Assembly: GCA_028687915.1 (NCBI GenBank)
Contig: JAQTZF010000001.1
Location: 802,634-866,633 of the forward strand
Direction of reading: 5' to 3'
DNA: 64,000 nt
From: Candidatus Daviesbacteria bacterium
GTDB taxonomy: Bacteria; Patescibacteriota; Microgenomatia; Daviesbacterales; UBA10151
In this document: one piece after another, positions 9,690 through 56,022 of the stretch
How the letters are laid out: each line of letters begins with the position of its first letter
How positions within the stretch are numbered: position 1 is the first letter of the stretch
Notes under the pieces: generated by a model
Databases searched by the model: none
Told to the model about the DNA's origin: nothing
Seen by the model: the letters and a program-made list of their open reading frames with translations, nothing else
Made by a program: the position numbers and the translations under genes

Positions 9690-9694
9690 TCAAC

Positions 9695-18190: not shown

Positions 18191-18191
18191 T

Positions 18192-19768: not shown

Positions 19769-19791
19769 AGGCAGTAATATTATTGTATCAT

Positions 19792-23466: not shown

Positions 23467-23468
23467 GT

Positions 23469-26245: not shown

Positions 26246-26280
26246 ATATTAAACGTATCAACTTTTAGCAAAATTAGCAA

Positions 26281-27260: not shown

Positions 27261-27287
27261 ATATTTACAATATCATATTTAATGAGA

Positions 27288-28931: not shown

Positions 28932-28939
28932 TATCTTCT

Positions 28940-29395: not shown

Positions 29396-29398
29396 GCT

Positions 29399-29884
29399 CT
29401 AATTAGCTTGCGTTGAGGAACAAACCACTTGTGGTGATGCTGTGGTATCTTCTAATGAAGCACAAACTCTGATTTTAGCAGCACCAGCTGCTGGTACACC
29501 ATTTGTCAAAAGTGCCCAACTTCCAGAACAACCACCTGTTGCCCAGGCTGTTGGATCAGTAGCAAAAGCTGCTCCGCTAGAAGCTGCTGTTGTTACACAG
29601 TAATTCTTACCTGTAACTGGATCAGTAGGTACCTTACCAGTTGTAAATTGTGTATCAAGTACTGCTGGAAATGTAGCATTATCAGCTCCTTTTGCTACAT
29701 CTAATGCTTTTGTTACTTCTGCAACATCTTGTCTTCTTTTAGCATCTCTGCCTTTGCTTTGAACACTTGAGAAAACTGCCATACCAATTGTTGCAAGAAT
29801 TGCTAAAATTGCGATAACTACCAGAAGTTCAATAAGTGTGAAACCTTGAGTATTTGTTGATGTCTTGGGCAGAACTTTTTTCAT
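29399..29884 (-). CDS. Major type IVa pilin paralog 2 (161 aa); tandem near-duplicate of 28940-29395
   Basis: Same N-terminus; long identical DNA tracts with paralog 1. Confidence 0.7.
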   Translation of the reverse strand: MKKVLPKTSTNTQGFTLIELLVVIAILAILATIGMAVFSSVQSKGRDAKRRQDVAEVTKALDVAKGADNATFPAVLDTQFTTGKVPTDPVTGKNYCVTTAASSGAAFATDPTAWATGGCSGSWALLTNGVPAAGAAKIRVCASLEDTTASPQVVCSSTQAN

Positions 29885-29932
29885 TTATTTTTCTTTATCT
29901 TTCTCATTATTGTCATAGGGCAATATACTCTG

Positions 29933-30862
29933 TCAATACCCCAGTTTGAAGCTATTTAAATACCAATTTAGAATTTGAGGACCCCAAAGCAGGGCAATAT
30001 AAGCCCCAAGACTTAAGAAAGGACCAAAGGGAATTGTTTGTCCAAAATGCTTTTTACCAAAACCCATAAGAATGACGGAGAAAACTGCTCCTATTAGAAA
30101 AGCCAGAAATAAACCAATGATGGCATTAGGAAAACCCAATGCAATTCCTAAAAATAAAACATATTTAACATCACCCCAACCCATCCCTCTTCCTTTGGTT
30201 ATTATTATAAGAAAAGCAAAGAATAAAGCAGAAACTATTCCTATAATAATAGAGAAAATCGCTGGTTCCCAAATTCTGTAAATTAAAGTCCAAAAATAAT
30301 TAGAGTATGGAGGCATCAAATACTTACCAAGAAAGTTAGATTTTAAACTTAAATAAAACAACCAGGAATTCAAGCCACAAGCCACTAACCAATACCCAAT
30401 AGCTATACCCACAGCAGGATAGGTAACCTTATCCGGCAATAATCCTGTTTTAATATCCGTCAGAAAGAGAATGAATAAAACTAAAACAATAAATATTTTA
30501 AATATAAAATTTAAAATAAGTGGTATTGATTGGACTGTAGGATTTAAAAGAATATTAAAATCAAAGGCTTGAGTTAAAAAAAGACCTGCAACTAAAAACC
30601 CCATCACTAATTCTGCAGCTAGATTGGTAAAAGGGATTGATTTACGACAATATCTACATTTACCAAGTAACATAATGTAGGAAAAAACAGGAAAGAGGTC
30701 GTACCATGCAAGTATATGTTTACACTTTACGCAATACGACCTTCCCCTCAAACTATCCTGCTTGTTTAGCCGATCGGCTACAGCTTTAGCAAAACTTCCT
30801 AAAATTGTACCTATCAAAAAGCCAAAAAAACTTAAACCAATCCACATAATTAATAAGTACAA
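29933..30862 (-). CDS. pilD: Prepilin peptidase / N-methyltransferase PilD (A24 family)
   Basis: CxxC…CxxC zinc site, GMGWGDVKYVLFLG catalytic motif, 8 TM. Confidence 0.8.
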   Translation of the reverse strand: MYLLIMWIGLSFFGFLIGTILGSFAKAVADRLNKQDSLRGRSYCVKCKHILAWYDLFPVFSYIMLLGKCRYCRKSIPFTNLAAELVMGFLVAGLFLTQAFDFNILLNPTVQSIPLILNFIFKIFIVLVLFILFLTDIKTGLLPDKVTYPAVGIAIGYWLVACGLNSWLFYLSLKSNFLGKYLMPPYSNYFWTLIYRIWEPAIFSIIIGIVSALFFAFLIIITKGRGMGWGDVKYVLFLGIALGFPNAIIGLFLAFLIGAVFSVILMGFGKKHFGQTIPFGPFLSLGAYIALLWGPQILNWYLNSFKLGY

Positions 30863-31404
30863 GCAAGCAACATATTAGAACCAACTTCATAAGACAAAGG
30901 ATCTGTTCCTCCGTCATTTGCTCTTCTGTCATTTGGAGCTGTTGTTTGTTGTTCAGATTCTAAATGTGTCATTATCTTCCAATGCGTTCCAGACCCACAA
31001 TATGTGTAATGTAAGGGTGTGGTATTTGTCGGATCTACTGGTAAGGTAGGCACTGTAACGTTTGATTGACCAGCAAAGTTAATGCTAACCCAACCTCCGC
31101 CATTAGTAAGCCTCTTAGTAGTATTTCCTGCTGGAATAATACTATTGTCTGTACAAGTTACGTCTGGAGTACCACTATTACATGCCGGACTTGCCTGACC
31201 TGCTGCTGTACCTTCCTGTAAAGCAACATTAATTGCTTGTTGGATGTTTGCCAAGTCAGTTAATCTGGAGGCATCCCTTGTTCTTCTTGTAAGTTCCAAT
31301 GGATTAATAATAAGTACTACGACCGCTGCTAAAATTGCAATAATTGCAATAACGACTAAAAGTTCTACAAGTGTAAAACCACGGGCAGTTTTTTTCAAAT
31401 TCAT
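30850..31404 (-). CDS. Type IV pilin (ARGFTLVELLVVIAIIAILAAVVV)
   Basis: Prepilin motif. Confidence 0.6.
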   Translation of the reverse strand: MNLKKTARGFTLVELLVVIAIIAILAAVVVLIINPLELTRRTRDASRLTDLANIQQAINVALQEGTAAGQASPACNSGTPDVTCTDNSIIPAGNTTKRLTNGGGWVSINFAGQSNVTVPTLPVDPTNTTPLHYTYCGSGTHWKIMTHLESEQQTTAPNDRRANDGGTDPLSYEVGSNMLLACTY

Positions 31405-31472
31405 TCACCTCCTTTCATCTACTTATTTAAGATTGTCACAGTTTTAAATTTTCGTCAAGTCTCTTTAAACTA

Positions 31473-32681
31473 CTATTTTATGTTTGTAGTTAACTGGTAA
31501 ATTGGTAAAATAATTGATACTACTAAAAAGCCTACCCCAATACCTAAAATCACTAAAACAACTGGTTCAATTAATGTTGTTATATTCTTTAATGAATTAT
31601 CTGATTCTGATTCAAAATAATCAGCTAATTTAAACATGATTTCATCTAACTTCCCAGTCTCCTCACCGGTTTTTATCATCTGTCCGATAATACGGGGGAA
31701 TTCTGGCAACCTAAGCACCTGGCTGGAGAAAGACAAACCTCTTTCAACTCCCTGATAAGCTAATATCAATCCATCTTGATAAACTCTGTTACCGGTAATT
31801 GCAGAAACAATTTTAATTGAGTCCAAAATCGAAAGGCCGGAAGAAACCAATAATCCAAAAGTCCTGGTAAAACTTGTTAAGATAACCAAAGAAGTAATTT
31901 TACCAATTGCCGGTGCTTTTAATAAAAACTCGTCAACCCGTAAGCGACCATCCTGGGTTTGTGAATACCTTCTAAATGATACTAAAGCTACTACAATTAC
32001 TACTAATATTAACCACCAATAACCTAACATAAAATTTGAAAAACCCATTAAAATCTTTGTTGGCAGCGGTAATTCTATATTTGAGTCACCATATAAACTT
32101 AAAAGCTTTGGCATCACAAAAAATACCATAATTAGCATGACCCCAACCATCATTGTTACCACGACGATTGGATAAATCATGGCACCTCTGATTTTTCCCT
32201 TAAACTCCCTTTCTTTTTCTAAATTATTAGCCAGCTGAAGTAATATAATATCTAACTTTCCTGATGCCTGACCTGCAGCAACCAACTGACCATATATCGC
32301 AGGAAAAACATCCGGATGTTTTTGCAATGCTGCTGCAAAATCCAAACCACCTTTAATATCTGCCAATATATCTATTAATACTTTTTTAAATTTCTTATTT
32401 TCCTGTTGGTCTTGCAAAATATCCAAAGCCTCAGATAAAACAAGACCAGCTTGTACCATAGTTGCCAGCTGTCTTGTCATAACAACTACCACACTAAAAG
32501 GTATTCTGTTAAAGTATTTATCAAATAAATTTTCCTGATTTTTATTCTTCTCTTTTATGGAAATAATAATCAGTCTTTTGCGACGCAAAAGCGTGGCTGC
32601 CTGAAACTGATCAACAGTCTCAACTTCACCTTTGTGATATTCTCCATTCATATCCTTGGTTGTGTAAGAAAATATAGGCAT
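31473..32681 (-). CDS. pilC: Type IV pilus platform protein PilC (GspF family)
   Basis: GspF-type duplicated domain architecture with TM segments. Confidence 0.8.
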   Translation of the reverse strand: MPIFSYTTKDMNGEYHKGEVETVDQFQAATLLRRKRLIIISIKEKNKNQENLFDKYFNRIPFSVVVVMTRQLATMVQAGLVLSEALDILQDQQENKKFKKVLIDILADIKGGLDFAAALQKHPDVFPAIYGQLVAAGQASGKLDIILLQLANNLEKEREFKGKIRGAMIYPIVVVTMMVGVMLIMVFFVMPKLLSLYGDSNIELPLPTKILMGFSNFMLGYWWLILVVIVVALVSFRRYSQTQDGRLRVDEFLLKAPAIGKITSLVILTSFTRTFGLLVSSGLSILDSIKIVSAITGNRVYQDGLILAYQGVERGLSFSSQVLRLPEFPRIIGQMIKTGEETGKLDEIMFKLADYFESESDNSLKNITTLIEPVVLVILGIGVGFLVVSIILPIYQLTTNIK

Positions 32682-32685
32682 AATA

Positions 32686-33738
32686 TTACCCTAAGATTTT
32701 GGCTAACAAATCTGGCCGCAGGCTATAAGCCTGACCCATTTCAAGAGAGATTTTTCCTTCCCGAACTAATTTAGCAAGAGAAGCTTCCATTGAAACCATT
32801 CCTAATTCACCGGAGGTTTGAATTAAGTTATCAATCATGTGAGTTTTTGCATCTCTGATTAATGAAGAAAGAGCATTAGTTTTAAGCAGTAGCTCAACTG
32901 CCAAAGCCCTGCCAGGAACAATTGTTGGGATTAGTCTTTGTGAAATAATTGCTTCAAGTACTGCTGCCAGCTGCAGCCTGATCTGTGGTTGTTGATTTTG
33001 GGGAAAAACATCAATCATTCTGTCAATGGATTGCGCAGCAGAATTAGTGTGTAGCGTAGCAAAAACCAAATGACCTGTTTCAGCTATAGTTATTGCAGCA
33101 GCAATGGTTTCATAATCACGCATTTCTCCAACTAAAACCACATCAGGATCTTCCCGAAGAGCAGATCTCAAAGCATTAGGCCAGGTTTTAGTATCCAAAA
33201 GAAGTTCTCTTTGCGTCACGATAGACTTTCCCTTGGGATAAATATATTCGATTGGATCTTCTATAGTTAATATATTTGCGTTGTGTTTTAAATTAATTTG
33301 ATTAATCATGGAAGCTAAAGTGGTAGATTTACCATGCCCGGTTGGACCAGTAATTAAAATAAAGCCCTGGCGGGGAACAATCAATTTATTAGCTACTTCA
33401 GGCAAACCCAAAGTAGACATCTCCGGAATCTGAAGAGGAATTAGCCTTAAAGCAGCTGCTAAATGCCCCTGTTCTTTAAATAAATTAATTCTAAATCTGG
33501 CTTTATCTTCAAATGAAAAACCAAAATCAAGTTCAAAATTTTCATCAAAAGCTTTTTTTTGAACAACAGATAAAAGTGGAGTGACTAAACCAAGTATGTC
33601 AGCATCAAGAAGGGGGGTAGTACCAGTAATTGGCAATAACTCTCCATTTAAACGAAGTGAGGGAGGATATCCGACCACTAAATGTAAATCTGATGCTTTC
33701 CTGGCAACTGCAATGTCTAATAATTGATGTATATTCAT
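32686..33738 (-). CDS. pilT: Twitching-motility / retraction ATPase PilT
   Basis: Walker A GPTGHGKSTT; PilT-length GspE-family ATPase. Confidence 0.8.
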   Translation of the reverse strand: MNIHQLLDIAVARKASDLHLVVGYPPSLRLNGELLPITGTTPLLDADILGLVTPLLSVVQKKAFDENFELDFGFSFEDKARFRINLFKEQGHLAAALRLIPLQIPEMSTLGLPEVANKLIVPRQGFILITGPTGHGKSTTLASMINQINLKHNANILTIEDPIEYIYPKGKSIVTQRELLLDTKTWPNALRSALREDPDVVLVGEMRDYETIAAAITIAETGHLVFATLHTNSAAQSIDRMIDVFPQNQQPQIRLQLAAVLEAIISQRLIPTIVPGRALAVELLLKTNALSSLIRDAKTHMIDNLIQTSGELGMVSMEASLAKLVREGKISLEMGQAYSLRPDLLAKILG

Positions 33739-35442
33739 TTATTCCTCTGCAACCCTCAAAACCTCCTCTAAACTGGTAGTTCCTTCTAAAGCTTTCATAT
33801 AACCATCTTGTTTCAAAGTAATCATTCCTTCTTTTATAGATTCTTCTTCAATAGCCTGAGACGAGGCTCTTTCCAGTACCATTGGCATAATTTTAGAGGA
33901 AACAACTAATACTTCATAAATACCTATTCTTCCCTGATAACCTGTTCCACCACATTCTGCACAACCTGTTCCTTTATAAAGTATGATTGGTTTTTCTTTT
34001 GGATAGAGATTTCCCAATACTCTTCTAAAATTTTCAGCAATCTCAGGCACAGGAGTATAAGTACTCTTGCAATGAGTACAAAGTTTTCTTAATATCCTTT
34101 GTCCAACACAAGCGTTGATAGAGGAAGCCAAAAGAAATGGCTCAATACCCATATCTAAAAGTCGGGGAAGCGCACCGGCAGCAGTATTTGTATGAAGTGT
34201 AGAAAAGACCTGATGCCCTGTTAAAGCAGCCTGAACAGCTAACTCTGCTGTCTCTGTGTCACGAACCTCTCCTACTAACATAATATTAGGATCTTGTCGT
34301 AAAAATGAACGCAAAGCAGAAGCAAAAGTTAAACCTATTGCCGGATTAACCTGAACCTGATTTGCTCCGGGAATTTGATACTCAACCGGATCTTCTACTG
34401 TAACCATATTTACTTTTGTGGTTGATAATCTGGTTAGAACAGAATATAAAGTTGTTGTTTTACCACTACCCGTTGGTCCGCAAATTAAAACAATACCATG
34501 TGGCCTAAGTATTTGTGTTTCAAAATTCTTTAATGCAATGCCACGAAGACCAAGTTCTTGCAAAGTAGGGGGGACAGTAGTTTTTGGCAATAACCTCATA
34601 ACCACTTTCTCACCATAGATTGTAGGAACTGTTGAAACACGAAGGTCATAAATATCCTTCCCAGCACTGTAACTAAAACGTCCATCCTGAGGTAAACGTT
34701 TTTCCTCAATTTTTAGATTTGACAGGATTTTAATTCGTGAGACAAGAGCATCATGCACAGTTCTTGGTAAAATAATCTTTTCATGCAAGATACCATCAAT
34801 ACGATAACGAACCCTGGTCCGATCATCCAGTGGTTCTATATGAATATCAGAAGCTCTGGATGAAACAGCAAACTGAAGAAGTTGGGTAATAATATTTGCC
34901 ACCGGAGCTTCATGAATAACTTCAGCTTTCTCTTCAACAGCTGTTTCCGTAGCCTGAAGTTCACTTACTTCCTTTAAAGCAGAAGTTACCTCAGAAGTTA
35001 AATTTTGAGAATACTGGTCTCCAATAGCCTTCATAATATCTTCCGGAACAGCCAGATAAGGCTTTACATACAGAGCGGATTTTTTCTCAATAAACTGAAT
35101 TACCTGTAAATCCAGAGGGTCAGCCATAGCAACAAATAATTTATCGCCCTTTTTATCAAATGGAATAATTCGATAGCGCCTGGCAACTACTTCAGGTACG
35201 AAATTTAATACTTCTGAAGAGACGGCTTTTCCTTCCAGATTAATAAAAGGCACACCCATCAAAGATGCTCGGGCAGCAGTCATTTTTGCAGGAGCTACGA
35301 GCTGATGTTGGGTAATTACCTGTTCTGTAGAGGAACCACTGTTAATGGATTCTAGTTTAACTGCAGATAGTTGTTGAGCTGTAAGTAAGCCTTGTTTAAA
35401 TAAAACATCTTCAATGCCAAATTGTTCTTGGGCAGTAGCCAT
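33739..35442 (-). CDS. pilB: Type IV pilus assembly ATPase PilB (GspE family)
   Basis: Walker A GPTGSGKTTT, tetracysteine motif CTHCK…CAECGGTG, N1/N2 domains. Confidence 0.85.
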   Translation of the reverse strand: MATAQEQFGIEDVLFKQGLLTAQQLSAVKLESINSGSSTEQVITQHQLVAPAKMTAARASLMGVPFINLEGKAVSSEVLNFVPEVVARRYRIIPFDKKGDKLFVAMADPLDLQVIQFIEKKSALYVKPYLAVPEDIMKAIGDQYSQNLTSEVTSALKEVSELQATETAVEEKAEVIHEAPVANIITQLLQFAVSSRASDIHIEPLDDRTRVRYRIDGILHEKIILPRTVHDALVSRIKILSNLKIEEKRLPQDGRFSYSAGKDIYDLRVSTVPTIYGEKVVMRLLPKTTVPPTLQELGLRGIALKNFETQILRPHGIVLICGPTGSGKTTTLYSVLTRLSTTKVNMVTVEDPVEYQIPGANQVQVNPAIGLTFASALRSFLRQDPNIMLVGEVRDTETAELAVQAALTGHQVFSTLHTNTAAGALPRLLDMGIEPFLLASSINACVGQRILRKLCTHCKSTYTPVPEIAENFRRVLGNLYPKEKPIILYKGTGCAECGGTGYQGRIGIYEVLVVSSKIMPMVLERASSQAIEEESIKEGMITLKQDGYMKALEGTTSLEEVLRVAEE

Positions 35443-45645: not shown

Positions 45646-45903
45646 TATTTTTACCTCCTAAATCAAAATTATATCATGACAATTAATCCCATAAACTTCT
45701 ACAGAAGTTTGAAAGCTACGCTTATAATAATATACTCTTTTTGCTTCCAAAAGGCTTGTTTTTATGCCTCAAAAAAGGGTATAATAGCTGAACAGCTTAA
45801 GGCTTTTTTTAATGTCTTTTTAGGCTAATTTTATGAGCAACATAAGCAACTGTTCGATCGTTTGGATCTCACAGCGCTTGAGTTGCAAGAAAGAATTAAT
45901 AAT

Positions 45904-48471
45904 ATGAGCAACATTGGTAAGATTGAACTAACACCTATAGTAGAAGAGATGCGCAGGTCATACCTTGATTATGCCATGTCTGTTATTGTTTCCCGTGCCT
46001 TACCAGATGTCCGCGATGGTCTTAAACCAGTACAAAGAAGGATTATCTTTGTGATGTATGAGTTAGGGTTATTGCATTCATCTACTTTTAGAAAATGTGC
46101 CAAGATTGCCGGAGACACTTCTGGTAACTACCATCCACACGGAGAATCAAATGTTTACGGAGCTTTGGTTAACTTAGTACAAGACTTCTCCATGCGTTAT
46201 CCTCTGATTGATGGTCAGGGAAACTTTGGTTCTGTTGATGGTGATATGCCTGCTGCCATGAGGTACACAGAAGCACGTCTTGCCAATATTTCAGAAGAAA
46301 TGCTTCGGGATATTAACAAGGGAACTGTTGATTTTATTCCAAACTATGACCAAACCAAAAATGAACCAACTGTTCTACCAGCCGGAATTCCAAATCTTTT
46401 ATTAAACGGCGCTTCTGGTATTGCTGTAGGTATGGCAACTCAAATTCCACCACATAATTTAGGAGAACTTATTAATGCGATCACATTCATGATCGACAAA
46501 CCAGTCAAACCAGAAAATCAGAAAGTCAGCGGTTCAGCAATTCAGCAGGAAAGCAATGCTGATTCTGCCGAAATAGCCGACGTTGCCGATACTCAGATTC
46601 CAGCTGAAACTACTGGAAAATTCCGTTCTGAAGCAACAGTAGAAGATTTACTCCAGTTTGTAAAAGGACCTGATTTTCCAACTGGTGGCTCAATCTATGA
46701 CCAATCAGAAATCATAAATGCTTATGCTACTGGTAAAGGTAGAATTGTGATGAGAGCCAAAGCAGAAATTGAAGAAGCTAAAAATGGCAGGTTTGATATT
46801 ATTGTTACAGAATTACCATATCAGGTTAATAAAGCAACACTTATTACCAGAATTGCAGAATTACATAAAGATAAAAAGATTGAAGGAATCTCTGATTTAA
46901 GGGATGAATCAGACAGAAGGGGAATGAGGATTGTAATGGAACTTAAGCGCGATGCAAAGCCCCAATCTCTACTTAATAACCTCTATAAGCATACTTCAAT
47001 GCAATCAGTTTTTAATGTAAACATGGTGGCTTTGGTAGATGGGGTGCCACATTTATTACCACTTAAATATATATTGGAAGAATTTATAACCCACAGGCAA
47101 GTTATTGTCCGCCGCAGGTCTGAATATGAATTGGCAGAAGCCAGAGCCAGAGAACATATCCTGGAAGGATTAAAAATTGCTGTTGATAATATTGATGAAG
47201 TCATTGCTACAATCCGAAAAAGCAAGGATGCAGAAGACGCTAAACTTAACTTAATGACCAAATTTAAATTAAGTGATTTACAATCCCAGGCAATCCTGGA
47301 CATGCAACTTCGAAGACTGGCAGCATTGGAGCGACAAAAGATTGAAGATGAGTTAAAAACAGTTCGCGAAACAATTGCTTATTTAGTAGATTTATTAGCC
47401 CATCCTGAAAAGATTTTAGGAGTAATTAAAGATGAACTTACCAGAATTAAAGATAAATATGCAGATGAGAGAAAAACCAGAGTCTACAAACAAAAAATTG
47501 GTGAATTTTCAGAAGAAGATTTGATTGCAGATGAACAAACAATAGTCACCATTACAGAGGGCGGTTATATAAAGAGGCAGCTTCCATCTACTTTTAGAGT
47601 TCAAAATAGGGGAGGCAAGGGAGTTTCTGGTATTACTACTAAGGAAGAAGATGCAGTTTCACATATTTTTTACACTAAAACTTTAGATAATATTTTATTC
47701 TTTACTGATCGGGGCAGAGTATTCCAAATGAAGGTTTGGGAAATACCAGAAGCCTCCAGAATAGCCAAAGGTCAGGCAATAGTTAACCTTATTAATATTG
47801 AGCAAGGTGAAAAAATTACTGCCATCTTAACTCTTAGACAAAAAGACACAACTAAATACCTATTTATGTGTACCAAGTTTGGGAACGTCAAAAAGACAGA
47901 AATTGCAGAATACTCTTCTATTAGAAAAAATGGTTTAATTTCTATTAAATTAGATGATGGAGATGAATTGGGTTGGGTTAATCCAACAACAGGTGAGGAT
48001 GAGATGATAATTGTTTCAAGGGATGGTCAATCAATCAGATTTAGTGAAAAAGATGTTCGTTCCACCCACAGAGATACTGCTGGTGTTAGAGGAGTAAAAC
48101 TTGGAAAAGATGATACTGTAGTATCAGCACAAAAGATTGATGACCCTAAATCAGATACAGTGCTAGTGGTAATGGCTAATGGTTTAGGTAAGAAAACTAT
48201 GATCTCTAATTGGACTAAACAAATCAGGGGAGGTATGGGAGTCAAAGCAGCCCAGGTAACTGCAAAAACAGGACCAATTATGACTGCTCAAATTGTAGAA
48301 AAAGGTGTTGATACCTTAGTTCTAACTTCAAATAAAGGCCAAATAATAAAATTAAATTTAAATGATGTTCCAACTTTACAAAGACAAACTCAGGGAGTAA
48401 TCTTGATGAGAATGAGAGAAGGCGAAAAAGTAGCTGCAGCAGCTATTGTCTCATCAAAAGAAAAAGAGTAA
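45904..48471 (+). CDS. gyrA: DNA gyrase subunit A (likely start MSNIGK…; the ORF is open from 45862)
   Basis: SYLDYAMSVIVSRALPDVRDGLKPVQRRI; active-site Tyr region; C-terminal beta-pinwheel repeats. Confidence 0.9.
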   Translation: MSNIGKIELTPIVEEMRRSYLDYAMSVIVSRALPDVRDGLKPVQRRIIFVMYELGLLHSSTFRKCAKIAGDTSGNYHPHGESNVYGALVNLVQDFSMRYPLIDGQGNFGSVDGDMPAAMRYTEARLANISEEMLRDINKGTVDFIPNYDQTKNEPTVLPAGIPNLLLNGASGIAVGMATQIPPHNLGELINAITFMIDKPVKPENQKVSGSAIQQESNADSAEIADVADTQIPAETTGKFRSEATVEDLLQFVKGPDFPTGGSIYDQSEIINAYATGKGRIVMRAKAEIEEAKNGRFDIIVTELPYQVNKATLITRIAELHKDKKIEGISDLRDESDRRGMRIVMELKRDAKPQSLLNNLYKHTSMQSVFNVNMVALVDGVPHLLPLKYILEEFITHRQVIVRRRSEYELAEARAREHILEGLKIAVDNIDEVIATIRKSKDAEDAKLNLMTKFKLSDLQSQAILDMQLRRLAALERQKIEDELKTVRETIAYLVDLLAHPEKILGVIKDELTRIKDKYADERKTRVYKQKIGEFSEEDLIADEQTIVTITEGGYIKRQLPSTFRVQNRGGKGVSGITTKEEDAVSHIFYTKTLDNILFFTDRGRVFQMKVWEIPEASRIAKGQAIVNLINIEQGEKITAILTLRQKDTTKYLFMCTKFGNVKKTEIAEYSSIRKNGLISIKLDDGDELGWVNPTTGEDEMIIVSRDGQSIRFSEKDVRSTHRDTAGVRGVKLGKDDTVVSAQKIDDPKSDTVLVVMANGLGKKTMISNWTKQIRGGMGVKAAQVTAKTGPIMTAQIVEKGVDTLVLTSNKGQIIKLNLNDVPTLQRQTQGVILMRMREGEKVAAAAIVSSKEKE

Positions 48472-48482
48472 ATTATATATAG

Positions 48483-48686
48483 ATGGAGAAAAAAATTACT
48501 GCCATAGCTATCGTGTATTTTGTAATTGGACTAATCGTCGCTATCACTTTTGCTACTTTTTATCACTGGCCACCTTTATCATATTTCAGCCCTAATTTTT
48601 ATTCTGTAGTCTTAACCTGGCCTTTTCAACTTAGTGGTTTGATTAGTGATTTCCAATATTACGGCTTCGCAGGCAAACCATTCTAA
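48483..48686 (+). CDS. Small hydrophobic protein (67 aa)
   Basis: ORF with one or two TM segments. Confidence 0.3.
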   Translation: MEKKITAIAIVYFVIGLIVAITFATFYHWPPLSYFSPNFYSVVLTWPFQLSGLISDFQYYGFAGKPF

Positions 48687-48761: not shown

Positions 48762-49685
48762 TTATTCCTTATTATTGCCGGAGTGAAACGACTTATGAAC
48801 ATCTTTTAAATGCTTATTGGTAACATGGGTATATATTTGGGTTGTAGCAATATTTGAATGACCTAGCATCTCCTGAACAGATCTGATATCAGCCCCATTA
48901 ATAAGCAAATCTGTAGCAAAACTGTGTCTTAATGTATGAGGAGTGGCTTTTACTAAAATACCAGTACCCTTAACATACTTTTCTACAATCCTTTCTATAG
49001 AGCGGGGAGTGAGCCTCATAGCTTCACCACCAGGAGTTATATCAACCTTACCCTGAAACCTAATAAACAGGGGAGAAAAATTATCTTTTCTATTTTTCAA
49101 ATATTGATCCAACCAATGAATAGCAGAATCAGATAAAAAAACCACTCTTTCTTTAGATCCTTTTCCCACCACGGAAAATTCAGATCTTTCTAAATTAATA
49201 GATTCACGATTTAAGGAAGCCAACTCTGCTACACGTAGTCCTGTTGAAAATAATGTTTCAAGCAAAGCTCTATCCCGAAGACCAGCAAGATCTGAGGTCT
49301 GGGGAGCCTCAAGCAGCTTTTTTAATGATTCATCATCCAGTATTTTAATAGGGGAGGCATCAGACTCACCTAACTCTATTTGTTCAGCAGAGAGTGATTC
49401 TATACCTTGTTTAGAAAGATAGCGTAAAAAAGCACGTAAAGCTATCATAAAATAATTTTGAGTAACTCTTTTTAAAGGTTCTTTAGTTTTGGGATCAAGC
49501 CAGCGGTTTAAAAATAAACGATATTTTCGAACAAGCGCCAGATTAATATCTGCAGGCTTAATATCCCCGGCATATTCGAGGAATCTTTTAAGATAGTGAT
49601 CGTAATTTTGTATTGTTTTTTGAGACGTATTACGTTCAATTTCTAAATATTCTAAAAAATCTGTTATTAAAGCGGAGAGCGTCAT
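48762..49685 (-). CDS. Tyrosine site-specific recombinase XerC/XerD family
   Basis: C-terminal catalytic HTLRHSFATDLL…LGHSNIATTQIYTHV. Confidence 0.8.
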   Translation of the reverse strand: MTLSALITDFLEYLEIERNTSQKTIQNYDHYLKRFLEYAGDIKPADINLALVRKYRLFLNRWLDPKTKEPLKRVTQNYFMIALRAFLRYLSKQGIESLSAEQIELGESDASPIKILDDESLKKLLEAPQTSDLAGLRDRALLETLFSTGLRVAELASLNRESINLERSEFSVVGKGSKERVVFLSDSAIHWLDQYLKNRKDNFSPLFIRFQGKVDITPGGEAMRLTPRSIERIVEKYVKGTGILVKATPHTLRHSFATDLLINGADIRSVQEMLGHSNIATTQIYTHVTNKHLKDVHKSFHSGNNKE

Positions 49686-49686
49686 G

Positions 49687-50382
49687 CTAACGTCTGGCTA
49701 GGCTAAAGAAACCTAGAAAAGTTAAAGAGCCCCCAATTCCGACCAATATTAAGGTAGGATTTACATCAGCTGTCCCAGGTAAAGGGGCCTGTGTTGGAGT
49801 CCATCTTGGTGGTTGAGTAATAGTAGCAGACCCAGTTGAAATAGGTCCGCCTTGTCCACAACTACCAGTTCCAATTACATAGTTACCATTTACAACCTGA
49901 TTTAAGGTTTCTACCATTGTAGTAATCTCAACCACATTTGTATCAGTGGTCTTACTTTTATCATTAGGATCAAAATCAAATTTAATCTGAGTGGCTCCAA
50001 CAGGAGCAGTTTCCAAAACCGTAAAATCAATAGTAGCAAATGTTCCTGCACCCTTAAAGAATGAGGTTGCAGAAGCTAAACCAGAGATAAGTATAGTACC
50101 TGTTAATGTATCAATACTATTTCCTGTATAATCCGGATAGATACTACCATTACTAATTTTATTAGCCACAAAACGGGTGGTATCATAATTAATAATCACA
50201 TCTGTACCAGCTGTTTCAAAAGTACTTGTATCTAAATTAACTGTTAATGAAAAATTACAATTTTTATTAAAAGTCCCGGTAGGAGGGGAGAGTGATAAGG
50301 TTGATCCGGCAGCAAAAGCTAAAGCAGGATTCATAAATATTAAGCTTAATGCACTTAAAAAAGAGATAAGTATTTTTTTCAT
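49687..50382 (-). CDS. Secreted cohesin-like domain protein with a C-terminal sortase-type sorting signal (LPGTA, hydrophobic stretch, RR)
   Basis: Signal peptide; cohesin-like beta-sandwich region; tripartite C-terminus PLPGTADVNPTLILVGIGGSLTFLGFFSLARR. Confidence 0.5.
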   Translation of the reverse strand: MKKILISFLSALSLIFMNPALAFAAGSTLSLSPPTGTFNKNCNFSLTVNLDTSTFETAGTDVIINYDTTRFVANKISNGSIYPDYTGNSIDTLTGTILISGLASATSFFKGAGTFATIDFTVLETAPVGATQIKFDFDPNDKSKTTDTNVVEITTMVETLNQVVNGNYVIGTGSCGQGGPISTGSATITQPPRWTPTQAPLPGTADVNPTLILVGIGGSLTFLGFFSLARR

Positions 50383-51008
50383 TGATTTATTTTAAGATCA
50401 AGATTTTTAACCTGTTCCAAAACATCAGCAGACTTTTTATTCTCTATAATATTACTGTCATTTGTTTTTCCTTTAGTGAATTCAATAAATACTTTAGCAG
50501 AGCCTGCAGCTTTTGCCTGAAATAAAATAGTACCAAATAAACCATTAGGAATAACTCCTGCTATATTATTTGTAATACCGGAAACTGTAATTACACCACT
50601 TTTTGATTCACTTTGATTAATGGGGTATTCATCATAAAGAGTACCCACAGTAACTGCACTTTTTGAAGAGGTAGGTGTAAGAGCTAATAAATTAGCATCA
50701 TAATGAATAATAATATCCGCCCCAGCTGTAGTTTTATCAGACTCAATGTTTATACCAACCGGTATCATTTCTCCAACCTTAAAATCAGTTTTAGGAACTG
50801 TTAAAGAAATAGTATTTAAGGCTTTAGTCTCTATTCCGGTTTTATTAGATTTAGGCTCAGACTGTTCAAATTGATCAGTTACCCTTAATGCCTGATAAGC
50901 CCAGGCACCCTGAATAGCAATCACAATTACCACAAAAATAATTACATAAAGTGGCTTAATATTACCAAGGAAGGTAGCTAATTTTGTTTTGATATTGGAC
51001 AGTTCCAT
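50379..51008 (-). CDS. Membrane-anchored cohesin-like domain protein
   Basis: N-terminal TM; cohesin-like region (…GADIIIHYDANLLAL…). Confidence 0.45.
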   Translation of the reverse strand: MELSNIKTKLATFLGNIKPLYVIIFVVIVIAIQGAWAYQALRVTDQFEQSEPKSNKTGIETKALNTISLTVPKTDFKVGEMIPVGINIESDKTTAGADIIIHYDANLLALTPTSSKSAVTVGTLYDEYPINQSESKSGVITVSGITNNIAGVIPNGLFGTILFQAKAAGSAKVFIEFTKGKTNDSNIIENKKSADVLEQVKNLDLKINQ

Positions 51009-51070
51009 TAATTTAAATCCTTACTATAATTGAACCACAAAGAGTTGTCTTCTGTCTAGTTTTATCATAC

Positions 51071-51316
51071 TTATGGTGCTGGTGGACCTAAAGGGGAGCG
51101 CAACTCAATAGTGAAGGTAGTACTGGTAGTAGTTCTTTTGTCAGGGCTAACACTATCTCCTGAAAAAGTAATTGGATCTGCTGCAGCCCTGGATTTAAAT
51201 AATTGCTGCTCACTAGCAAGCTTCACTCCAACCGGAATAACCAACAACATAATTCCAATAACCAGTAATGCAATAATATTTTTCTTATTCAATAAACCTT
51301 TATTTACTTCTTCCAT
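51071..51316 (-). CDS. 81-aa protein paralogous to the N-terminal anchor module of 53875-54567
   Basis: Shared motif KKNI…IPVGV-L…QLFK[SP][RK]AA…I-FSGD/SG. Confidence 0.35.
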   Translation of the reverse strand: MEEVNKGLLNKKNIIALLVIGIMLLVIPVGVKLASEQQLFKSRAAADPITFSGDSVSPDKRTTTSTTFTIELRSPLGPPAP

Positions 51317-53875
51317 TTATTCTCCTCCTTTATTGTAATTATTTTGTAAACAAGAGTAATCTACAGAATTAACCCGTGAGTCAGTATTTAAATCAGCAGT
51401 CCTGCTAACATCACTATTTAATGCCCACTCTCTAGACATTTCTCCTTTATCAAAAGCATTAACCTTATTATCAGGAGCAGCCACCGGATAAATATCTCCC
51501 ACATATAAAATTATATCACCCAAATTAGTAGTACCTTCTTCTGCTATAAACTCTACTTTTCTACTAACTGTTTTTGGTGCTTTAAGGCTTAAGACATACG
51601 TTTTTCCAATTTCTATACCAGGGGTAAAATCAACTGGTTTACCTTCTTTATCTATATTAATTTTCTTCTTGATAAGTGATTTAGCACCATCAACTTTTTC
51701 TTTAATTTCAACAGCCACATCTGTTGCTGATAAGTCACCAGATTGTGCTAAACAGGTAGTTTTCTCAGTAAAATCAACAGTGGTTAAATCCAATGAACAA
51801 TAGCCATTTATCACTGTACCATCATCAGTAGTTAATACTATCTGATGCCTGCCTCCGGTTAACCTGTCATTTAGGCTGGATTTAATCTCATACCTTGTAT
51901 CTTTATTAGAAGATACTGGAGTAGCGGATAGAGTAGCAGATGAAGTTGAACTTGTATCTTTTCCTAAAGAAACCCAGGAACTAATATTAGCCTGCTTGCC
52001 TTCAACTTTAATATTTCCGGTACCCTGATCATCGTGTAAGCCAAAGTTTATTCCCCTAACAGTTACTAAAGTTCCGGTACCAATAGGACTAAAGGTACAA
52101 TTAGCTGAAGTTATCCTTGGTTCTCCACCAATATACTTAATACTCTTTGAGGTTACTGTGCTTTTATTATCTTTATTATCTTTAAACTGACAAAACAAAG
52201 TTAAATTTCCACCTGGAACAACATTATAAGTAAATTCTTTTGTGAATGTGATAGGAGCACCAGATCCATCTCTATTTCTATATGGCTCCCATTGTGGGGC
52301 GCTGCTACCAGTATCATCTTTATCAAAGCTTTGTTCAGAACACCTATATTCTGTGGTATAAGTTGGAACTGGTGGAGGAGTTGGGGTTACATAGGTAATC
52401 TGGCGGGAGAAAACCTGACTGGTTGTTTCATCTGGCTTTTTAAATTGAACACAAACATTATAAACCTTACCAACAACAGGATTTGCTAATTGATAATTAT
52501 TAATTGATAGGGCATCTGTATTACCAGCAGCCGCATAAGATTCCCATGTAGGGGAAGCATCGCCTGCATTAAAACAGGCATCACCAACTGTGTAACGATA
52601 TTGATAAGTCCTGTCTGTAGGAGCGGCCGTAACGGTTGGTGGTGGTGTTGATGTAGTACTACTGGTTATATCAACAACTTTCCAGCCAACATTTTGACCA
52701 CCACAACTAAAATCTGATATTGTTCCACAATCAACGCATTGGCTTGCAGGTGAACCTAAAGAAGCTGCTGGGCAAGTAGAAGCTCCATACCATTTACAAA
52801 AAGGATTGCCGGAACACCAAACTCTTGGTGCACCACCTATACCAAGTTTGTAGGCTTGGTATTCTGTAGAAGCAGTAGAAACAAAAGGATTAATATAATA
52901 CCTGCCAGTAGACCTGGGGGTCCATTTGGCTGTAAGTATATATCTGTTTTCACCTGTAGTAAAAGTTGACTGATTAAAGGTAAATCCTTTTACGCCAAAA
53001 TTACAATATTGCCTATTAACATTATCTATAGTTGCAGGACTACCTCCACTTGCAACACAATCTGGATTAGGAACATTGTTATTATGATCTTGATCTGCCC
53101 GAACCCAAAGAAGACTTGTTGATAATAGACCGCCCAGTACACTAGTATTAGCAGTTGAGGTAAAGGAGAGCTCTTGACCCACCACACCGCTACTAGGACC
53201 TTCAACAGAGGCGCTGATGGCAGGATTTGTTCCATCTGGATTTCTAGCAGGTGCTCCAGAAGCTATGGATTGTCTAGTAAACCAAACATGATTCCATCTA
53301 CAATTACCCCAGTCATCTGTAGATGATGTTGGTTTCCTAACAGCTTTAATTTCAATTGACTGATCATTAGAAGGTGTTGCAAAAGTTCCTTGCTGAATAG
53401 GTACGCCACATTCATTACCAAGATTATCAGTCACTTTATGAAACCATTTGGTTAACTTAAAATTAGGGTCATCAACATGAATAGAAACTCTTGTTGGTAC
53501 ACCATCTACTGTACCCAAAGGAATACTTATACGTTCAAAAGTATAAAAAGGTTCATCATGGACAAAAGTGCTACCTTTTCCAGAAGGGTCAGGGTTGCAG
53601 CCACTGGAAAATGAATCACCATCAGATCCTTGACTCCATGTCACTTTATAAGTTGGAGTACCTTGACAAGCAGGGCCACCACAAGAACCGCCAATTATTT
53701 TTCTCTGATTAGTACAGCTACCATAAAGTGATGGATTCTCATCTGTCACCTGACCAAGTAAAACAGCACCCTCTCGTGAGCCATTCCAAACAGCAGATGC
53801 TTTTTGGGCAGAAAAAATAAAAAAGACAACCAATATTAAACTAAATAAATATGTAAATACTTTAATTTTTTTCAT
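51317..53875 (-). CDS. Large secreted Cys-rich protein (852 aa), hypothetical surface protein
   Basis: Signal peptide; many Cys pairs; Ig/fibronectin-like repetitive beta-rich regions. Confidence 0.55.
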   Translation of the reverse strand: MKKIKVFTYLFSLILVVFFIFSAQKASAVWNGSREGAVLLGQVTDENPSLYGSCTNQRKIIGGSCGGPACQGTPTYKVTWSQGSDGDSFSSGCNPDPSGKGSTFVHDEPFYTFERISIPLGTVDGVPTRVSIHVDDPNFKLTKWFHKVTDNLGNECGVPIQQGTFATPSNDQSIEIKAVRKPTSSTDDWGNCRWNHVWFTRQSIASGAPARNPDGTNPAISASVEGPSSGVVGQELSFTSTANTSVLGGLLSTSLLWVRADQDHNNNVPNPDCVASGGSPATIDNVNRQYCNFGVKGFTFNQSTFTTGENRYILTAKWTPRSTGRYYINPFVSTASTEYQAYKLGIGGAPRVWCSGNPFCKWYGASTCPAASLGSPASQCVDCGTISDFSCGGQNVGWKVVDITSSTTSTPPPTVTAAPTDRTYQYRYTVGDACFNAGDASPTWESYAAAGNTDALSINNYQLANPVVGKVYNVCVQFKKPDETTSQVFSRQITYVTPTPPPVPTYTTEYRCSEQSFDKDDTGSSAPQWEPYRNRDGSGAPITFTKEFTYNVVPGGNLTLFCQFKDNKDNKSTVTSKSIKYIGGEPRITSANCTFSPIGTGTLVTVRGINFGLHDDQGTGNIKVEGKQANISSWVSLGKDTSSTSSATLSATPVSSNKDTRYEIKSSLNDRLTGGRHQIVLTTDDGTVINGYCSLDLTTVDFTEKTTCLAQSGDLSATDVAVEIKEKVDGAKSLIKKKINIDKEGKPVDFTPGIEIGKTYVLSLKAPKTVSRKVEFIAEEGTTNLGDIILYVGDIYPVAAPDNKVNAFDKGEMSREWALNSDVSRTADLNTDSRVNSVDYSCLQNNYNKGGE

Positions 53876-54567
53876 TAGTGTTGCGGTGGCATCTCCAGTC
53901 TATCATTTGGTCCACATCGTGGGTTTTGTGAAATAGTTGCAACCGGATTACCACTACAATAAACCATACCATTAAATGTCTGAGCATTAGCTACAATATA
54001 ATAACGTTGGTTATCATTTGGATATGCCCATGTACCTGTAGCAGTACAAGTACTAGCCCCAGCACAGTCATTATTAACACCTATTAAAGTCCAGGAGTTT
54101 GGATCTTTTAAATCTTTAGCTTGATTGGCTACATATACCCATGCTTTTCGCAGATTTACTCCTGTTGCAGTTGTAGTATATGTATTACCAGATACCGATA
54201 ATGAAGCAGAAAGACCCGGAGCTGGAGTAGAGGTTGGAACTGATGTAGTAGTAGGAGTTGGGCTAGCTGAAGGAGTTGGTGCTTGAGTTCCAGTTGGATT
54301 CCCGCCCGAGCCAGGAGCTCCATAAGGACCATATGGGGAATGAAAAGTTATATTTACCTTAGGATCAGTGGTTTTACATCCACTTGCAATGCAATCAAAT
54401 ACCCCAGATCCACTAATTTCTATTGTTTCTCCTGCTGCTTTTGGTTTAAAAAGTTGTGTTTGTTGAACTAAATAAACTCCAATCGGAATTGATAAGGCAA
54501 TAAGACCTAAAATAATAGCAGAAGTAATATTTTTTTTCGTCAGAAGATAATTTAATGAGTCATTCAT
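53875..54567 (-). CDS. N-terminally anchored secreted protein with a Pro/Thr-rich linker and a Cys-containing C-terminal domain
   Basis: Conserved N-terminal anchor motif shared with 51071-51316. Confidence 0.5.
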   Translation of the reverse strand: MNDSLNYLLTKKNITSAIILGLIALSIPIGVYLVQQTQLFKPKAAGETIEISGSGVFDCIASGCKTTDPKVNITFHSPYGPYGAPGSGGNPTGTQAPTPSASPTPTTTSVPTSTPAPGLSASLSVSGNTYTTTATGVNLRKAWVYVANQAKDLKDPNSWTLIGVNNDCAGASTCTATGTWAYPNDNQRYYIVANAQTFNGMVYCSGNPVATISQNPRCGPNDRLEMPPQH

Positions 54568-54792
54568 CTATAATAGGGCATTAAGATCTAGATTAGAGTA
54601 AAAGGGCAAGTAATGTCAAGCACAGGCAGTGAATCAACAGGTAAGGGAATCGGCAGATCAGCAAGATCAGTGTATCAGAGAAGACTTTATATTGTGCGAC
54701 AACGATTATATTCAGATAGATCAGATAGAACCGGAAAGATACCAGTTTAAACTAAAGAATATCTATTTAAAATCATAAAGATCAAAAAGATA

Positions 54793-54860
54793 CACACTAA
54801 ACATATATAAAATGTCATTCTGAGCATAAGCGAAGAATCAATACTTATGAGATCCTTCGT
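54793..54860. repeat. Copy B of the ~70-bp imperfect palindromic repeat (inverted relative to copy A)
   Basis: GTCATTCTGAGC…GAAGAATC…GATCCTTC…CCTCAGGATGAC; immediately downstream of the GIY-YIG gene. Confidence 0.65.
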
Positions 54861-54903
54861 CATTTTATTCCTCAGGATGACAAGAACGTATTTATTAGAA
54901 CAT

Positions 54904-55179
54904 TCAACAAAGATCATCCCAGTTAGGGTTTTTAGATTCAATAAGCTTTATTTTCTTAATTCTTAGCCATCCTTTAATGCGTTTTTCAGCAGAAATTGCA
55001 TCATTAACATCTGTAAATTCCTCATAATAAACAAGCTTATTTAAGTTGTATTTATGGGTAAAACTAGGAATTAGTTTTATTTTATGTTCATGAATTCTTC
55101 TTTGAATATTATTAGTAACTCCCGTATATAAAACATTATTTGATTTGTTAGTTAGTATATAAACGAAAAAACTTCTCAT
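54904..55179 (-). CDS. GIY-YIG family nuclease (UPF0213/YhbQ-like, 91 aa)
   Basis: FVYILTNKSNNVLYTGVTNNIQRRIHEH motif. Confidence 0.8.
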   Translation of the reverse strand: MRSFFVYILTNKSNNVLYTGVTNNIQRRIHEHKIKLIPSFTHKYNLNKLVYYEEFTDVNDAISAEKRIKGWLRIKKIKLIESKNPNWDDLC

Positions 55180-55200
55180 AAATTTATACTCTCAAACATA

Positions 55201-55350
55201 AACTACCAGTCAAGAGATGTTTCGCTTTGCTCAACATGACGCTTTAAGGCTCCGTAGCCATGAGGCGCTACAATGGCCCTAAACCGGCTGGAAAGCAGGG
55301 CAGTGCTATGGTAAGCTATCCATAGTTTAGGCTGTCCTAAAGCCCCAAGC
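55201..55350 (+). ncRNA. Candidate structured ncRNA (GC-rich island with nested helices and a GCU-GGAA-AGC GNRA hairpin); family and strand unassigned
   Basis: GC content about 55% against the AT-rich surroundings; helices CCTAAAC/GTTTAGG, CTATGG/CCATAG, GCCAT/ATGGC; no ORF. Confidence 0.25.
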
Positions 55351-55850
55351 TAATTATATAGAAAAACAATAAAAACTCAAAAACAGATAAGAAAATTATT
55401 GAAGAAAAGTAGCAAAATATGGCACAAATAAATACTACTTAAAAACCAATAAAAATTGATTCAGGTACAAATTTATATATTTTTACCTCTCCTCCGGCTA
55501 GCCTCCACGACGTCGTATAAGATACATTGTGCGACGTCGTAATTGGGAAGTAAACTTACTCACTACATTCAGAGTAGAGCTAAGGCTAAATTAGGAGTAG
55601 TTTGTGGCTTCTATTCTTCTTATTTAGCCTCATTTTATGTATCTAAAGCAACCCCTGCCTCTCCTCCGTACTAGTAACTACTTATCTTTTCACGCGTGAA
55701 AATAGATGTTAGCAGTCTTACAGTTACTGTAGTAAGTTTAGCTTCAAAAAGAGAGTACTCCACTCCTGAATATATTTGCTAAAAAATGTATATTTATTGA
55801 GGCTAAATTGAAGCTACAGAAAAAGTCCAGAGAACACTATACCCTATAGT

Positions 55851-55871
55851 TTAGCCACAAAGTTATCCACA
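55851..55871 (+). promoter_or_regulatory. Tandem DnaA-box-like 9-mers TTAGCCACA-aag-TTATCCACA (second is a perfect consensus) next to an AT-rich tract
   Basis: Direct match to TTATCCACA; lies within an 840-bp gene-free region. Confidence 0.3.
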
Positions 55872-56022
55872 ACTGTCCTCTATCTGTATCAGACTATATC
55901 AAATATACTATCCTATAGTTTTTTATATTCACGAAATCTTATTTTTGATCAAAGGTATCAAACTATATCATTTGAAGCTAAAAATACCACTTCCCCTCTT
56001 CTCCACCTTCTTGCTCTGAATT

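Follow-up and report, generated by a model that had tools for sequence, protein, structure and literature searches.

A 64,000-nucleotide stretch of the genome of a Candidatus Daviesbacteria bacterium (assembly GCA_028687915.1, contig JAQTZF010000001.1; hereafter the window, whose own numbering is used throughout) carries five consecutive minus-strand genes, which we call g1 to g5, followed directly by a gene for a Xer-type tyrosine recombinase. We think it probable, with some reserve, that these form a six-gene operon conserved across Daviesbacteria, which puts a single variable protein of adhesin-like character on the surface of the cell by means of a cohesin–dockerin interaction. According to the list of open reading frames (ORFs), all on the minus strand, the genes are g1 (53875..54567, 230 amino acids), g2 (51317..53875, 852 amino acids), g3 (51071..51316, 81 amino acids), g4 (50379..51008, 209 amino acids) and g5 (49687..50382, 231 amino acids), where an earlier note on this DNA, made from the letters alone, had placed them and at the sizes it gave. 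The intergenic gaps from g1 to g5 are –1, 0, 62 and –4 nt. The recombinase gene (48762..49685, minus strand, 307 amino acids) begins 1 nt downstream of g5, and by this tight linkage it looks like the sixth member of the operon. The names already on record at NCBI are ‘cohesin domain-containing protein’ for both g4 and g5 and ‘IPT/TIG domain-containing protein’ for g2; g1 has the GenBank locus tag PHQ59_04630.

The two halves of the proposed interaction are both encoded in the operon. Against the Pfam Cohesin model (PF00963, gathering cut-off 24.1 bits), g4 scored 28.2 bits and g5 34.4 bits, which bears out the cohesin-like pair of the earlier note, and the two proteins are mutually paralogous (E=3e-12). 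The g5 family has at least 238 members, and a PF00963 match is precomputed on nearly all of the 120 g5 homologues listed. In g4, the cohesin (residues 68–185) follows an N-terminal signal-anchor transmembrane (TM) helix (residues ~19–41) and there is no C-terminal tail; we predict a single cohesin held in the membrane by that helix. In g5, a signal peptide (residues 1–24) is followed by the cohesin (residues 40–146), a linker and a conserved 31-residue C-terminal tail, suggesting a secreted single cohesin whose linker leads to an LP-x-x-[GA] motif and a TM tail. The g4 N-terminal helix carries a conserved Glu or Gln within it in most of the 25 family members viewed. In the window (50886–50954) and in the related loci L006, L045 and L047, this residue (Glu, with Gln in the window) is followed by an aromatic one, in the pattern ...L-x-E-x-I-[YF]-A..., a feature seldom expected of a simple membrane anchor and perhaps a sign of a helix–helix partner.

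The partner domain, overlooked in the earlier note, lies at the C-terminus of g2 (residues ~795–852, 51320..51493). Residues 802–845 matched Dockerin_1 (PF00404) at 21.8 bits (E=2e-4; gathering cut-off 22.9 bits), and six of six homologous C-termini from other loci scored 29.6–36.7 bits for the same model. A distant g2 homologue, P0005, has a precomputed PF00404 match, and the only PDB sequences that matched g2 are three dockerins, aligned at residues 797–845. At the level of the family, these matches indicate that the g2 C-terminal dockerin is real. Type I dockerins have two tandem calcium-binding loop–helix repeats of the form D-x-N-x-D-x-x-[VI]-N-x-x-D. The second calcium loop of g2, DLNTDSRVNSVD, is canonical; the first, GDIYPVAAPDNKVNAFD, is atypical, with an insertion and without the first loop residues, and its form, GDI-x-P...D-x-x-[VI]N-x-x-D, recurs in other loci. 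By its sequence, the g2 dockerin is type-I-like.

The operon recurs well beyond this genome. In a relative with 59–73% protein identity, the same five genes stand in the same order between RuvC/DUF5656 and Xer/GyrA. A search with a g5 alignment recovered 67 loci from species-representative genomes, and the informative record titles among them all name Daviesbacteria, Microgenomates or Patescibacteria. We mapped locally built hidden Markov models (HMMs) onto all loci, covering the cohesins, the g5 tail, the dockerin and an N-terminal module shared by g1 and g3 that is described below. Most of the 67 loci have one recurring order on one strand, namely zero to four module proteins, a dockerin-bearing cargo protein (g2 in the window), a TM-anchored cohesin of ~200–280 amino acids, a tail-bearing cohesin of ~230–265 amino acids and Xer. 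The cargo lies immediately upstream of the cohesins in the window and in more than 50 related loci, and the g4-type gene is always placed between cargo and g5. More than 50 species-level Daviesbacteria genomes share this layout at the same chromosomal site, and contigs that were reached independently, via other proteins, have the same gene order. The loci that seemingly have no cargo are truncated or assembly-gapped exactly there. Natural fusions in related loci, one type joining module, cargo, dockerin and cohesin and another being a small cohesin–dockerin adaptor, follow scaffoldin logic.

Three further observations concern these loci. Runs of N stand exactly at the expected cargo position in L013, L023, L026, L040 and L043, suggesting that the cargo region is strain-variable and assembles poorly. 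A second, dockerin-rich locus (L072, contig JAKFWZ010000078.1) lies away from the Xer site in the same genome as L067 and encodes four dockerin proteins together with a 274-amino-acid cohesin–dockerin adaptor whose dockerin has two textbook repeats. Finally, co-assembly bins titled ‘uncultured Gammaproteobacteria bacterium’ (L008, L013, L015–L017 and many others) carry the Daviesbacteria-type locus with the same flanks; on such bins the title is evidently generic or wrong.

The cargo itself is built from a conserved end and a changing one. As the earlier note had seen, g2 is a Cys-rich protein with a classical signal peptide; 19 of its 22 Cys are kept in the orthologue. The signal peptide is followed by a unique Cys-rich head (residues 29–200, 53276..53791), a hypervariable centre (residues 201–480, 52436..53275) with an immunoglobulin (Ig)/CARDB-like beta-sandwich and the first of two tandem ~80-residue repeats, a conserved stalk (residues 481–794, 51494..52435) with the second repeat, a weak IPT/TIG match (at residues 586–641) and a beta-sandwich region, and then the dockerin. 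Identity to the orthologue is 82–98% over residues 1–200, 25–50% over 201–440, 55% over 441–480 and 65–90% over 481–852. The last ~370 residues, stalk plus dockerin, are common to ~64 cargo proteins of other loci, the centre is shared with them only patchily, and residues 1–200, found in this genome and its closest relative, have no homologue in any other locus. Pfam detected neither a catalytic nor a carbohydrate-binding domain in g2. A conserved attachment end joined to a diversifying distal end is the layout expected of an adhesin, and the cargo looks adhesin-like rather than cellulosomal. For the central sandwich, AlphaFold gave a moderately confident model whose top Foldseek matches are a CARDB domain and antibody V domains. 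The sharp fall of identity in the centre (52436–53275) suggests diversifying selection or recombination in the Ig-like region.

The remaining two genes of the operon share the N-terminal module. g1 consists of this module, a Pro/Thr linker and a C-terminal Ig-like, Cys-containing domain (YY[IV]...CSGNP) that aligns with part of the g2 central region as a paralogue, and g3 is the module standing alone, leader plus ectodomain and nothing else. In g1, the leader (residues 1–46, 54430..54567) comprises a KKN box, a TM helix ending in IP-x-GV, QTQLFK and then P-K-A, and the ectodomain (residues 47–85, 54313..54429) follows the logo I-x-[FI]-x-G-x-x-V ... C..C ... V-x-I-x-F-x-SP-x-GP. The paralogy of g1 and g3 claimed in the earlier note is clear (BLASTP, 47% identity over 49 residues, E=2e-13), and over ~80 residues the family HMM scored 105.6 bits on g1 and 116.8 bits on g3, both at E<=1e-32; neither protein has a Pfam or NCBIfam match, and a PDB sequence search with the module gave no informative match. 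Orthologues in the relative are 64.5% identical to g1 by global alignment (61% by BLASTP) and 71% identical to g3.

A three-sequence profile searched against 1.84 billion representatives placed 654 clusters in the module family at E<=1e-3, 178 of them at E<=1e-10. The module is nearly always N-terminal, within the first ~110 residues of proteins of 66–1,102 amino acids. Stand-alone module proteins of ~80–100 residues are common and conserved, those of at most 110 residues making up 72 of the 149 new family representatives listed (window g1 aside); since g3 is itself conserved in the orthologue, it is not the recently duplicated and truncated gene that the earlier note had considered. That the motif is lineage-specific, as the note had suggested, is borne out, with every named member coming from Daviesbacteria (n=2). 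Across 233 non-redundant module sequences, Ala44 is invariant (100%), position 42 is Ser in 82% and Pro in 10%, g1 included, P28 is conserved in 93% and L33 in 91%, and the KKN box, a QQ pair, I-x-F-x-G and S-P-x-G are each ~75–90% conserved. Structure prediction, one of the checks proposed in the note, was useful for g3, where AlphaFold (69 sequences, mean predicted local distance difference test (pLDDT) score 79) returned a helix at residues 11–39 spanning TM and juxtamembrane segments, a break at S-R-A and, for the ectodomain, two short strands with no globular fold; of g2 it recovered only the Ig/CARDB-like centre. In L028, the first ~46 module residues alone are fused to a g4-type cohesin, indicating that the module consists of two separable parts.

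The company the module keeps ties it to this locus. Among the long module proteins, the domain met most often is Dockerin_1 (20 of 74, E<=0.01), CarboxypepD_reg and TIG domains recur among family members, and 44 ORFs across the mapped loci combine module and dockerin. Two long module proteins picked by their N-terminus alone both proved to lie in the same locus type. The module is fused to the cargo in 39 of 52 assessable loci, and in the other 13, including the window, a module-only gene stands directly upstream, at a gap of –38 to +19 nt, and the cargo begins with a classical signal peptide. Three exceptions to this fused-or-upstream rule are truncated or gapped loci. Because cargo with its own signal peptide is still accompanied by a module protein, the module does more than export; judged from these gene arrangements, it is obligatory in the locus type and has a role beyond cargo export. 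We considered and rejected the idea that the motif is a general secretion signal of the lineage, as every readable module context is this locus type and as ordinary signal peptides are found on g2, g5 and the cargo of split loci. From its sequence profile and genomic contexts, the module is a new, unannotated domain family of ~80 residues that is specific to this locus type.

Known N-terminal signals offer partial parallels. YSIRK-G/S and ESPR are extended or motif-bearing signal peptides; like the module, they are export signals whose N-terminal and hydrophobic regions share a conserved motif, and they are confined to surface proteins of a single functional class. The module is longer, with a ~46-residue leader and a ~35-residue conserved ectodomain; it also exists as stand-alone proteins of 80–100 residues tied to a single locus type, and it is kept in the locus even where the cargo has an ordinary signal peptide. 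Signal peptidase I substrates have small residues at –3 and –1 just after the hydrophobic helix, and the S-x-A site after the module helix resembles this in part, but S42 and A44 lie ~13 residues past the TM helix, and the predicted helix runs to residue 39.

From these components we propose that g2 would leave the cell by Sec export and that its dockerin would plug into one of the two cohesins encoded beside it. Co-variation would favour the adjacent TM-cohesin g4 as the partner: in partial Mantel tests controlled for Xer across 37 loci, the dockerin, the module leader and the module ectodomain correlated with g4 at r 0.52–0.60 and with g5 at 0.23–0.36. g5 may be an outer anchor resembling ScaE of Ruminococcus flavefaciens, held by its TM tail or moved to peptidoglycan by a sortase. 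The variable head would be left projecting outward, where it could bind a partner cell or surface. The module most likely acts as a system-specific membrane anchor or assembly element that would associate with the cohesin anchors, with contact possibly made through its conserved TM/juxtamembrane helix or through its strand-like ectodomain.

Several points weigh against this account. Adjacent genes and recombination in blocks could both produce co-variation, and the signal is confounded by them. The calcium-dependent, high-affinity binding of dockerin to cohesin is a prediction; g4 and g5 are cohesins by Pfam sequence match, with a presumed nine-stranded jelly-roll beta-sandwich fold; and the g5 family profile found no solved cohesin by sequence in the PDB and no informative match. 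The g2 dockerin lies 1.1 bits under the Pfam cut-off, and its first calcium-loop repeat is atypical. The g2 head has no Pfam match, and its AlphaFold model (pLDDT ~30, from an alignment that is too shallow) is not interpretable. A module retained in the membrane would tether the fused module–cargo–dockerin proteins at both ends, which is odd for a head meant to point outward. Lastly, adhesion to a host is suggested by the lifestyle of the candidate phyla radiation (CPR), and the organism is uncultivated.

A bolder version of the proposal, which we hold to be unlikely, would make the module a new assembly element whose helix and strand-like ectodomain dock onto a cohesin anchor, either as another ligand besides the dockerin or by pairing with the anchor inside the membrane. 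Module, dockerin and both cohesins would then form a membrane-to-wall tether presenting a rapidly diversifying head, with which an episymbiotic CPR lineage would recognize its host, and the LP-x-x-G...LALL ending of the g5 family would be a new sorting or anchoring signal.

The closest described parallel for display through a single cohesin is in R. flavefaciens, where ScaE, a single cohesin anchored by sortase through an LPXTG signal, binds the stalk and dockerin end of the adhesin CttA (PMC5301203). In R. flavefaciens, and by our proposal in Daviesbacteria, dockerin proteins are anchored to a Gram-positive-type envelope by a secreted protein that has one cohesin and ends in an LPXTG-type tail. 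Both systems have their genes in a cluster, with g5 as the likeness of ScaE and g2 as that of CttA, an adhesin without enzymatic activity whose C-terminus consists of a stalk (X module) and a dockerin. The Daviesbacteria locus differs in having a second, N-terminally membrane-anchored cohesin (g4), a g5-family tail that is mostly not LPXTG and has no basic end, a hypervariable cargo head with no recognizable carbohydrate-binding module and an obligatory N-terminal module family for which ScaE–CttA has no counterpart. It is also not attached to a multi-cohesin enzyme scaffold, and its host is a CPR bacterium with a ~1.1-Mb genome. Cohesin and dockerin modules outside cellulosomes are not in themselves new; a 2009 study by Peer et al. 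in FEMS Microbiol Lett reportedly described them across bacteria and archaea. Those modules, like the ones described here, occur in organisms without cellulases and with adhesin-type or uncharacterized passengers, but as scattered domains and not as a fixed operon. We know of no operon, fixed across a whole lineage, in which a single dockerin cargo is encoded together with two cohesins that differ in their anchoring, and none is described in the searchable literature, which also makes no mention of cohesin–dockerin operons or of the module or tail motifs in CPR bacteria. Relative to that literature, the g2 dockerin, the conserved operon, the module family and the tail consensus appear to be new.

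Little is known of the means by which the ultra-small CPR bacteria attach to other cells, except in a few Saccharibacteria in culture, for which pili have been implicated. The locus offers a concrete candidate for attachment, found at one fixed site in essentially every sampled Daviesbacteria genome, with its anchoring parts conserved and its outward-facing head diverging fast. Its cohesin–dockerin pairs could be tested in vitro with recombinant domains and without culturing the organism. Profile models of the module family (654 clusters) and of the undescribed tail would improve the annotation of many ‘hypothetical proteins’. More broadly, the plug-and-socket mechanism, familiar chiefly from cellulosomes, would gain with this locus a role that is conserved and non-enzymatic, in a genome of minimal size.

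Within the cohesin–dockerin display reading, the anchoring of g5 has an alternative account. The earlier note took its C-terminus for a sortase signal, by which the LPGTA–hydrophobic–RR tail would be cleaved and the cohesin joined covalently to peptidoglycan; this would refine the anchoring step without replacing the rest, and we think it possible but doubtful. The sequence is there. The tail (residues 201–231, 49690..49782) reads LPGTAD, hydrophobic helix, ARR, that is, LPGTA, 24 mainly hydrophobic residues with one Asp and then RR, and it scored 13.8 bits against the sorting-signal model TIGR01167, below the cut-off of 15.9 bits. It shares with LPXTG signals an LP start, a hydrophobic C-terminal stretch of ~23 residues and its place on a secreted surface protein, to which the window adds the RR end. 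Family-wide, the LP-x-[ATGS]-[GA] motif stands at a fixed 31 residues from the C-terminus, counted from the conserved Leu, as a sorting signal would, and ScaE provides a cohesin anchored in exactly this manner (PMC5301203).

The window tail is a minority variant, however. The usual family tail is LPPAG[TS]-x-x-LT-...-G-x-x-L-x-x-LGILGLALL, a membrane helix with no basic end, and the broader motif is LP-x-x-[GA]-[TSD]...GILGLALL. Among 120 listed homologues, LPxT[GA] occurs in nine and a basic residue within the last four positions in 26, and the two features coincide in only four of 165 non-redundant tails. A basic end accompanies the ‘T-A’ variant in 15 of 19 tails but is present in only 11 of the 146 others; those ‘T-A’ cases, however, form one sub-clade, to which the window belongs. 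Sortases are known to cleave after Thr, and the majority tails have Ala at that position. The family-consensus tail matched no curated sorting-signal model and is also set apart from LPXTG signals by its restriction to one protein family: by HMM and regular expression, the tail was found only on g5-type cohesins among the ORFs of 74 sources and 149 module-family proteins, a sample biased to this locus. Of the two terminal motifs that the earlier note had proposed to seek on other proteins, the N-terminal one is widespread as the module family and the C-terminal one is, in that sample, confined to g5-type cohesins, and the window itself holds no other copy of either beyond this operon. A search for a sortase (PF04203), which the note had likewise proposed, found none in the window or within ±10 kb of the 67 related loci, with SrtA of Staphylococcus aureus as probe and with a screen for a TLxTC-type motif over ~1.3 Mb of DNA; Pfam found none among ten unannotated window ORFs, and the Pfam annotations of neighbouring genes on related contigs list none. 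In Microgenomates, however, Méheust et al. report a sortase family that is close to ubiquitous (PMC6744442), and one closed Microgenomates genome encodes a sortase (PMC7143001), so that a sortase may yet anchor the g5 of this sub-lineage. The TM segment of the tail is unusually conserved (G-15, L-12, G-8 and G-5), which suggests a retained, interacting helix, and from the tail sequences we consider such a helix at least as likely as sortase anchoring.

A different architecture is also conceivable. The cohesin-like sandwiches could be pilin- or chaperone-like acceptors in a fibre built by donor-strand exchange, to which the module ectodomain donates a strand, with the small stand-alone module proteins as membrane anchors or terminators. 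The ectodomain has no fold of its own beyond its two predicted strands, and its alternating hydrophobic pattern with a conserved Gly (I-x-F-x-G-x-x-V) resembles the N-terminal donor strands of chaperone–usher pilins; that the module is obligatory even beside cargo with a signal peptide would also fit. Precedent exists in the CPR-specific Pam pili, in which truncated-Ig pilins assemble by donor-strand exchange with PapD-like chaperones, encoded next to ATP synthase genes (bioRxiv 10.64898/2026.03.03.709456). Like the locus described here, Pam is a CPR surface apparatus of Sec-exported beta-sandwich proteins with no trans-envelope machine and a presumed role in host contact; some of its beta-sandwich components are held by C-terminal TM helices, its anchor has an N-terminal strand, and homologues occur in Microgenomatia (bioRxiv 10.64898/2026.03.03.709456). 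We nonetheless judge a Pam-like fibre very unlikely. Both g4 and g5 exceed the Pfam Cohesin cut-off, and their sequence runs past the match, apparently with the last strands, giving no sign of an incomplete sandwich; no PapD-like chaperone or truncated-Ig pilin was found by Pfam; and the neighbours are RuvC/DUF5656 and Xer/GyrA rather than the ATP synthase context of pam operons. A real dockerin in the same operon explains the cohesins without a new mechanism, and by description Pam is set apart from the cohesin–dockerin locus.

The linked recombinase raises the question of whether the surface protein varies by programmed rearrangement, with Xer inverting or exchanging cargo genes. In essentially every locus Xer is co-directional with g5 and within 1 nt of it, and almost all mapped loci with contigs of sufficient reach have Xer as the next gene after the two cohesins. 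In ~20 genomes, a second Xer-like recombinase of ~335–350 amino acids stands at the upstream cargo boundary (L005, L006, L014, L016, L017, L019, L021–L023, L027, L030, L033, L035, L037, L045, L047, L049, L059, L070 and L075), so that the surface-protein genes there lie between two co-directional Xer paralogues. From species to species the cargo is hypervariable, its divergence does not track that of Xer (raw r ~0.1), and assemblies often break in the cargo region. Such a variation cassette is in our view highly improbable all the same. Apart from short AT-rich matches attributable to chance, the window and four two-Xer loci showed no repeats at the boundaries, whether inverted or direct, and an invertible or shufflon-type element was rejected on that ground. 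The genes all run in one direction, with no sign of silent cassettes. The recombinases match housekeeping XerC/XerD/XerA models over their full length, pointing to the operon-linked Xer as probably a housekeeping enzyme, and the flanking synteny with RuvC and GyrA is equally conserved, so the linkage of Xer may merely reflect shared ancestry.

Least probable of all is a minimal cellulosome in which the cohesins assemble dockerin-bearing polysaccharide-degrading enzymes on the surface, for which the cohesin–dockerin pair and single module-family members with a GH5 cellulase, a GH2-type domain, a pectate-lyase-like beta-helix or similar could be cited, but which is contradicted by one cohesin per anchor, leaving no possible multi-enzyme scaffold, by a g2 with neither catalytic nor carbohydrate-binding domain, and by enzyme domains that each occur on ~1 of 74 members against 20 of 74 with only adhesin-type domains plus dockerin. 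The surface-display locus of the earlier note is supported by the cohesin–dockerin pair; its cellulosome-like side does not fit.

The rest of the window yielded several smaller observations. The 1.45-kb spacer upstream of the operon (54568–56022) contains a 91-amino-acid GIY-YIG nuclease ORF (54904–55179; Pfam, 60 bits), and in the relative L001 a gene of the 23S_rRNA_IVP family (9432–9782) takes its place at the orthologous spot; the differing small genes make the spacer look like a small hot spot for selfish genes. An RNA element in this spacer was considered and rejected: an Rfam scan of the whole window found no RNA family, and a promoter/terminator scan gave fewer matches than shuffled sequence. 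On the other side of the operon, a hydrophobic ORF of 67–69 residues follows gyrA directly and precedes Xer; it is conserved (48483–48686 in the window, 15825–16028 in L001, 17395–17604 in L005 and 11713–11922 in L006) and has no family assignment. The window also includes gyrB/gyrA and cell-wall genes. The GyrA ORF (45862–48471) has a TTG start as listed and an acidic, low-complexity insertion of ~50 residues (...KPENQKVSGSAIQQESNADSAEIADVADTQIPAETTGK...) that, to our knowledge, is absent from typical GyrA proteins. Lastly, a large type IV pilus cluster on the minus strand (17507–35442), which lies 15 kb away from the operon, is another candidate for contacting the host. At least eight of its genes are pilin-like and carry a GFTLIELL class III signal, and ORF order and N-terminal sequence suggest PilB, PilT, PilC, PilM/N and a prepilin peptidase; a PilO-like ORF is the only member of the cluster confirmed by Pfam.

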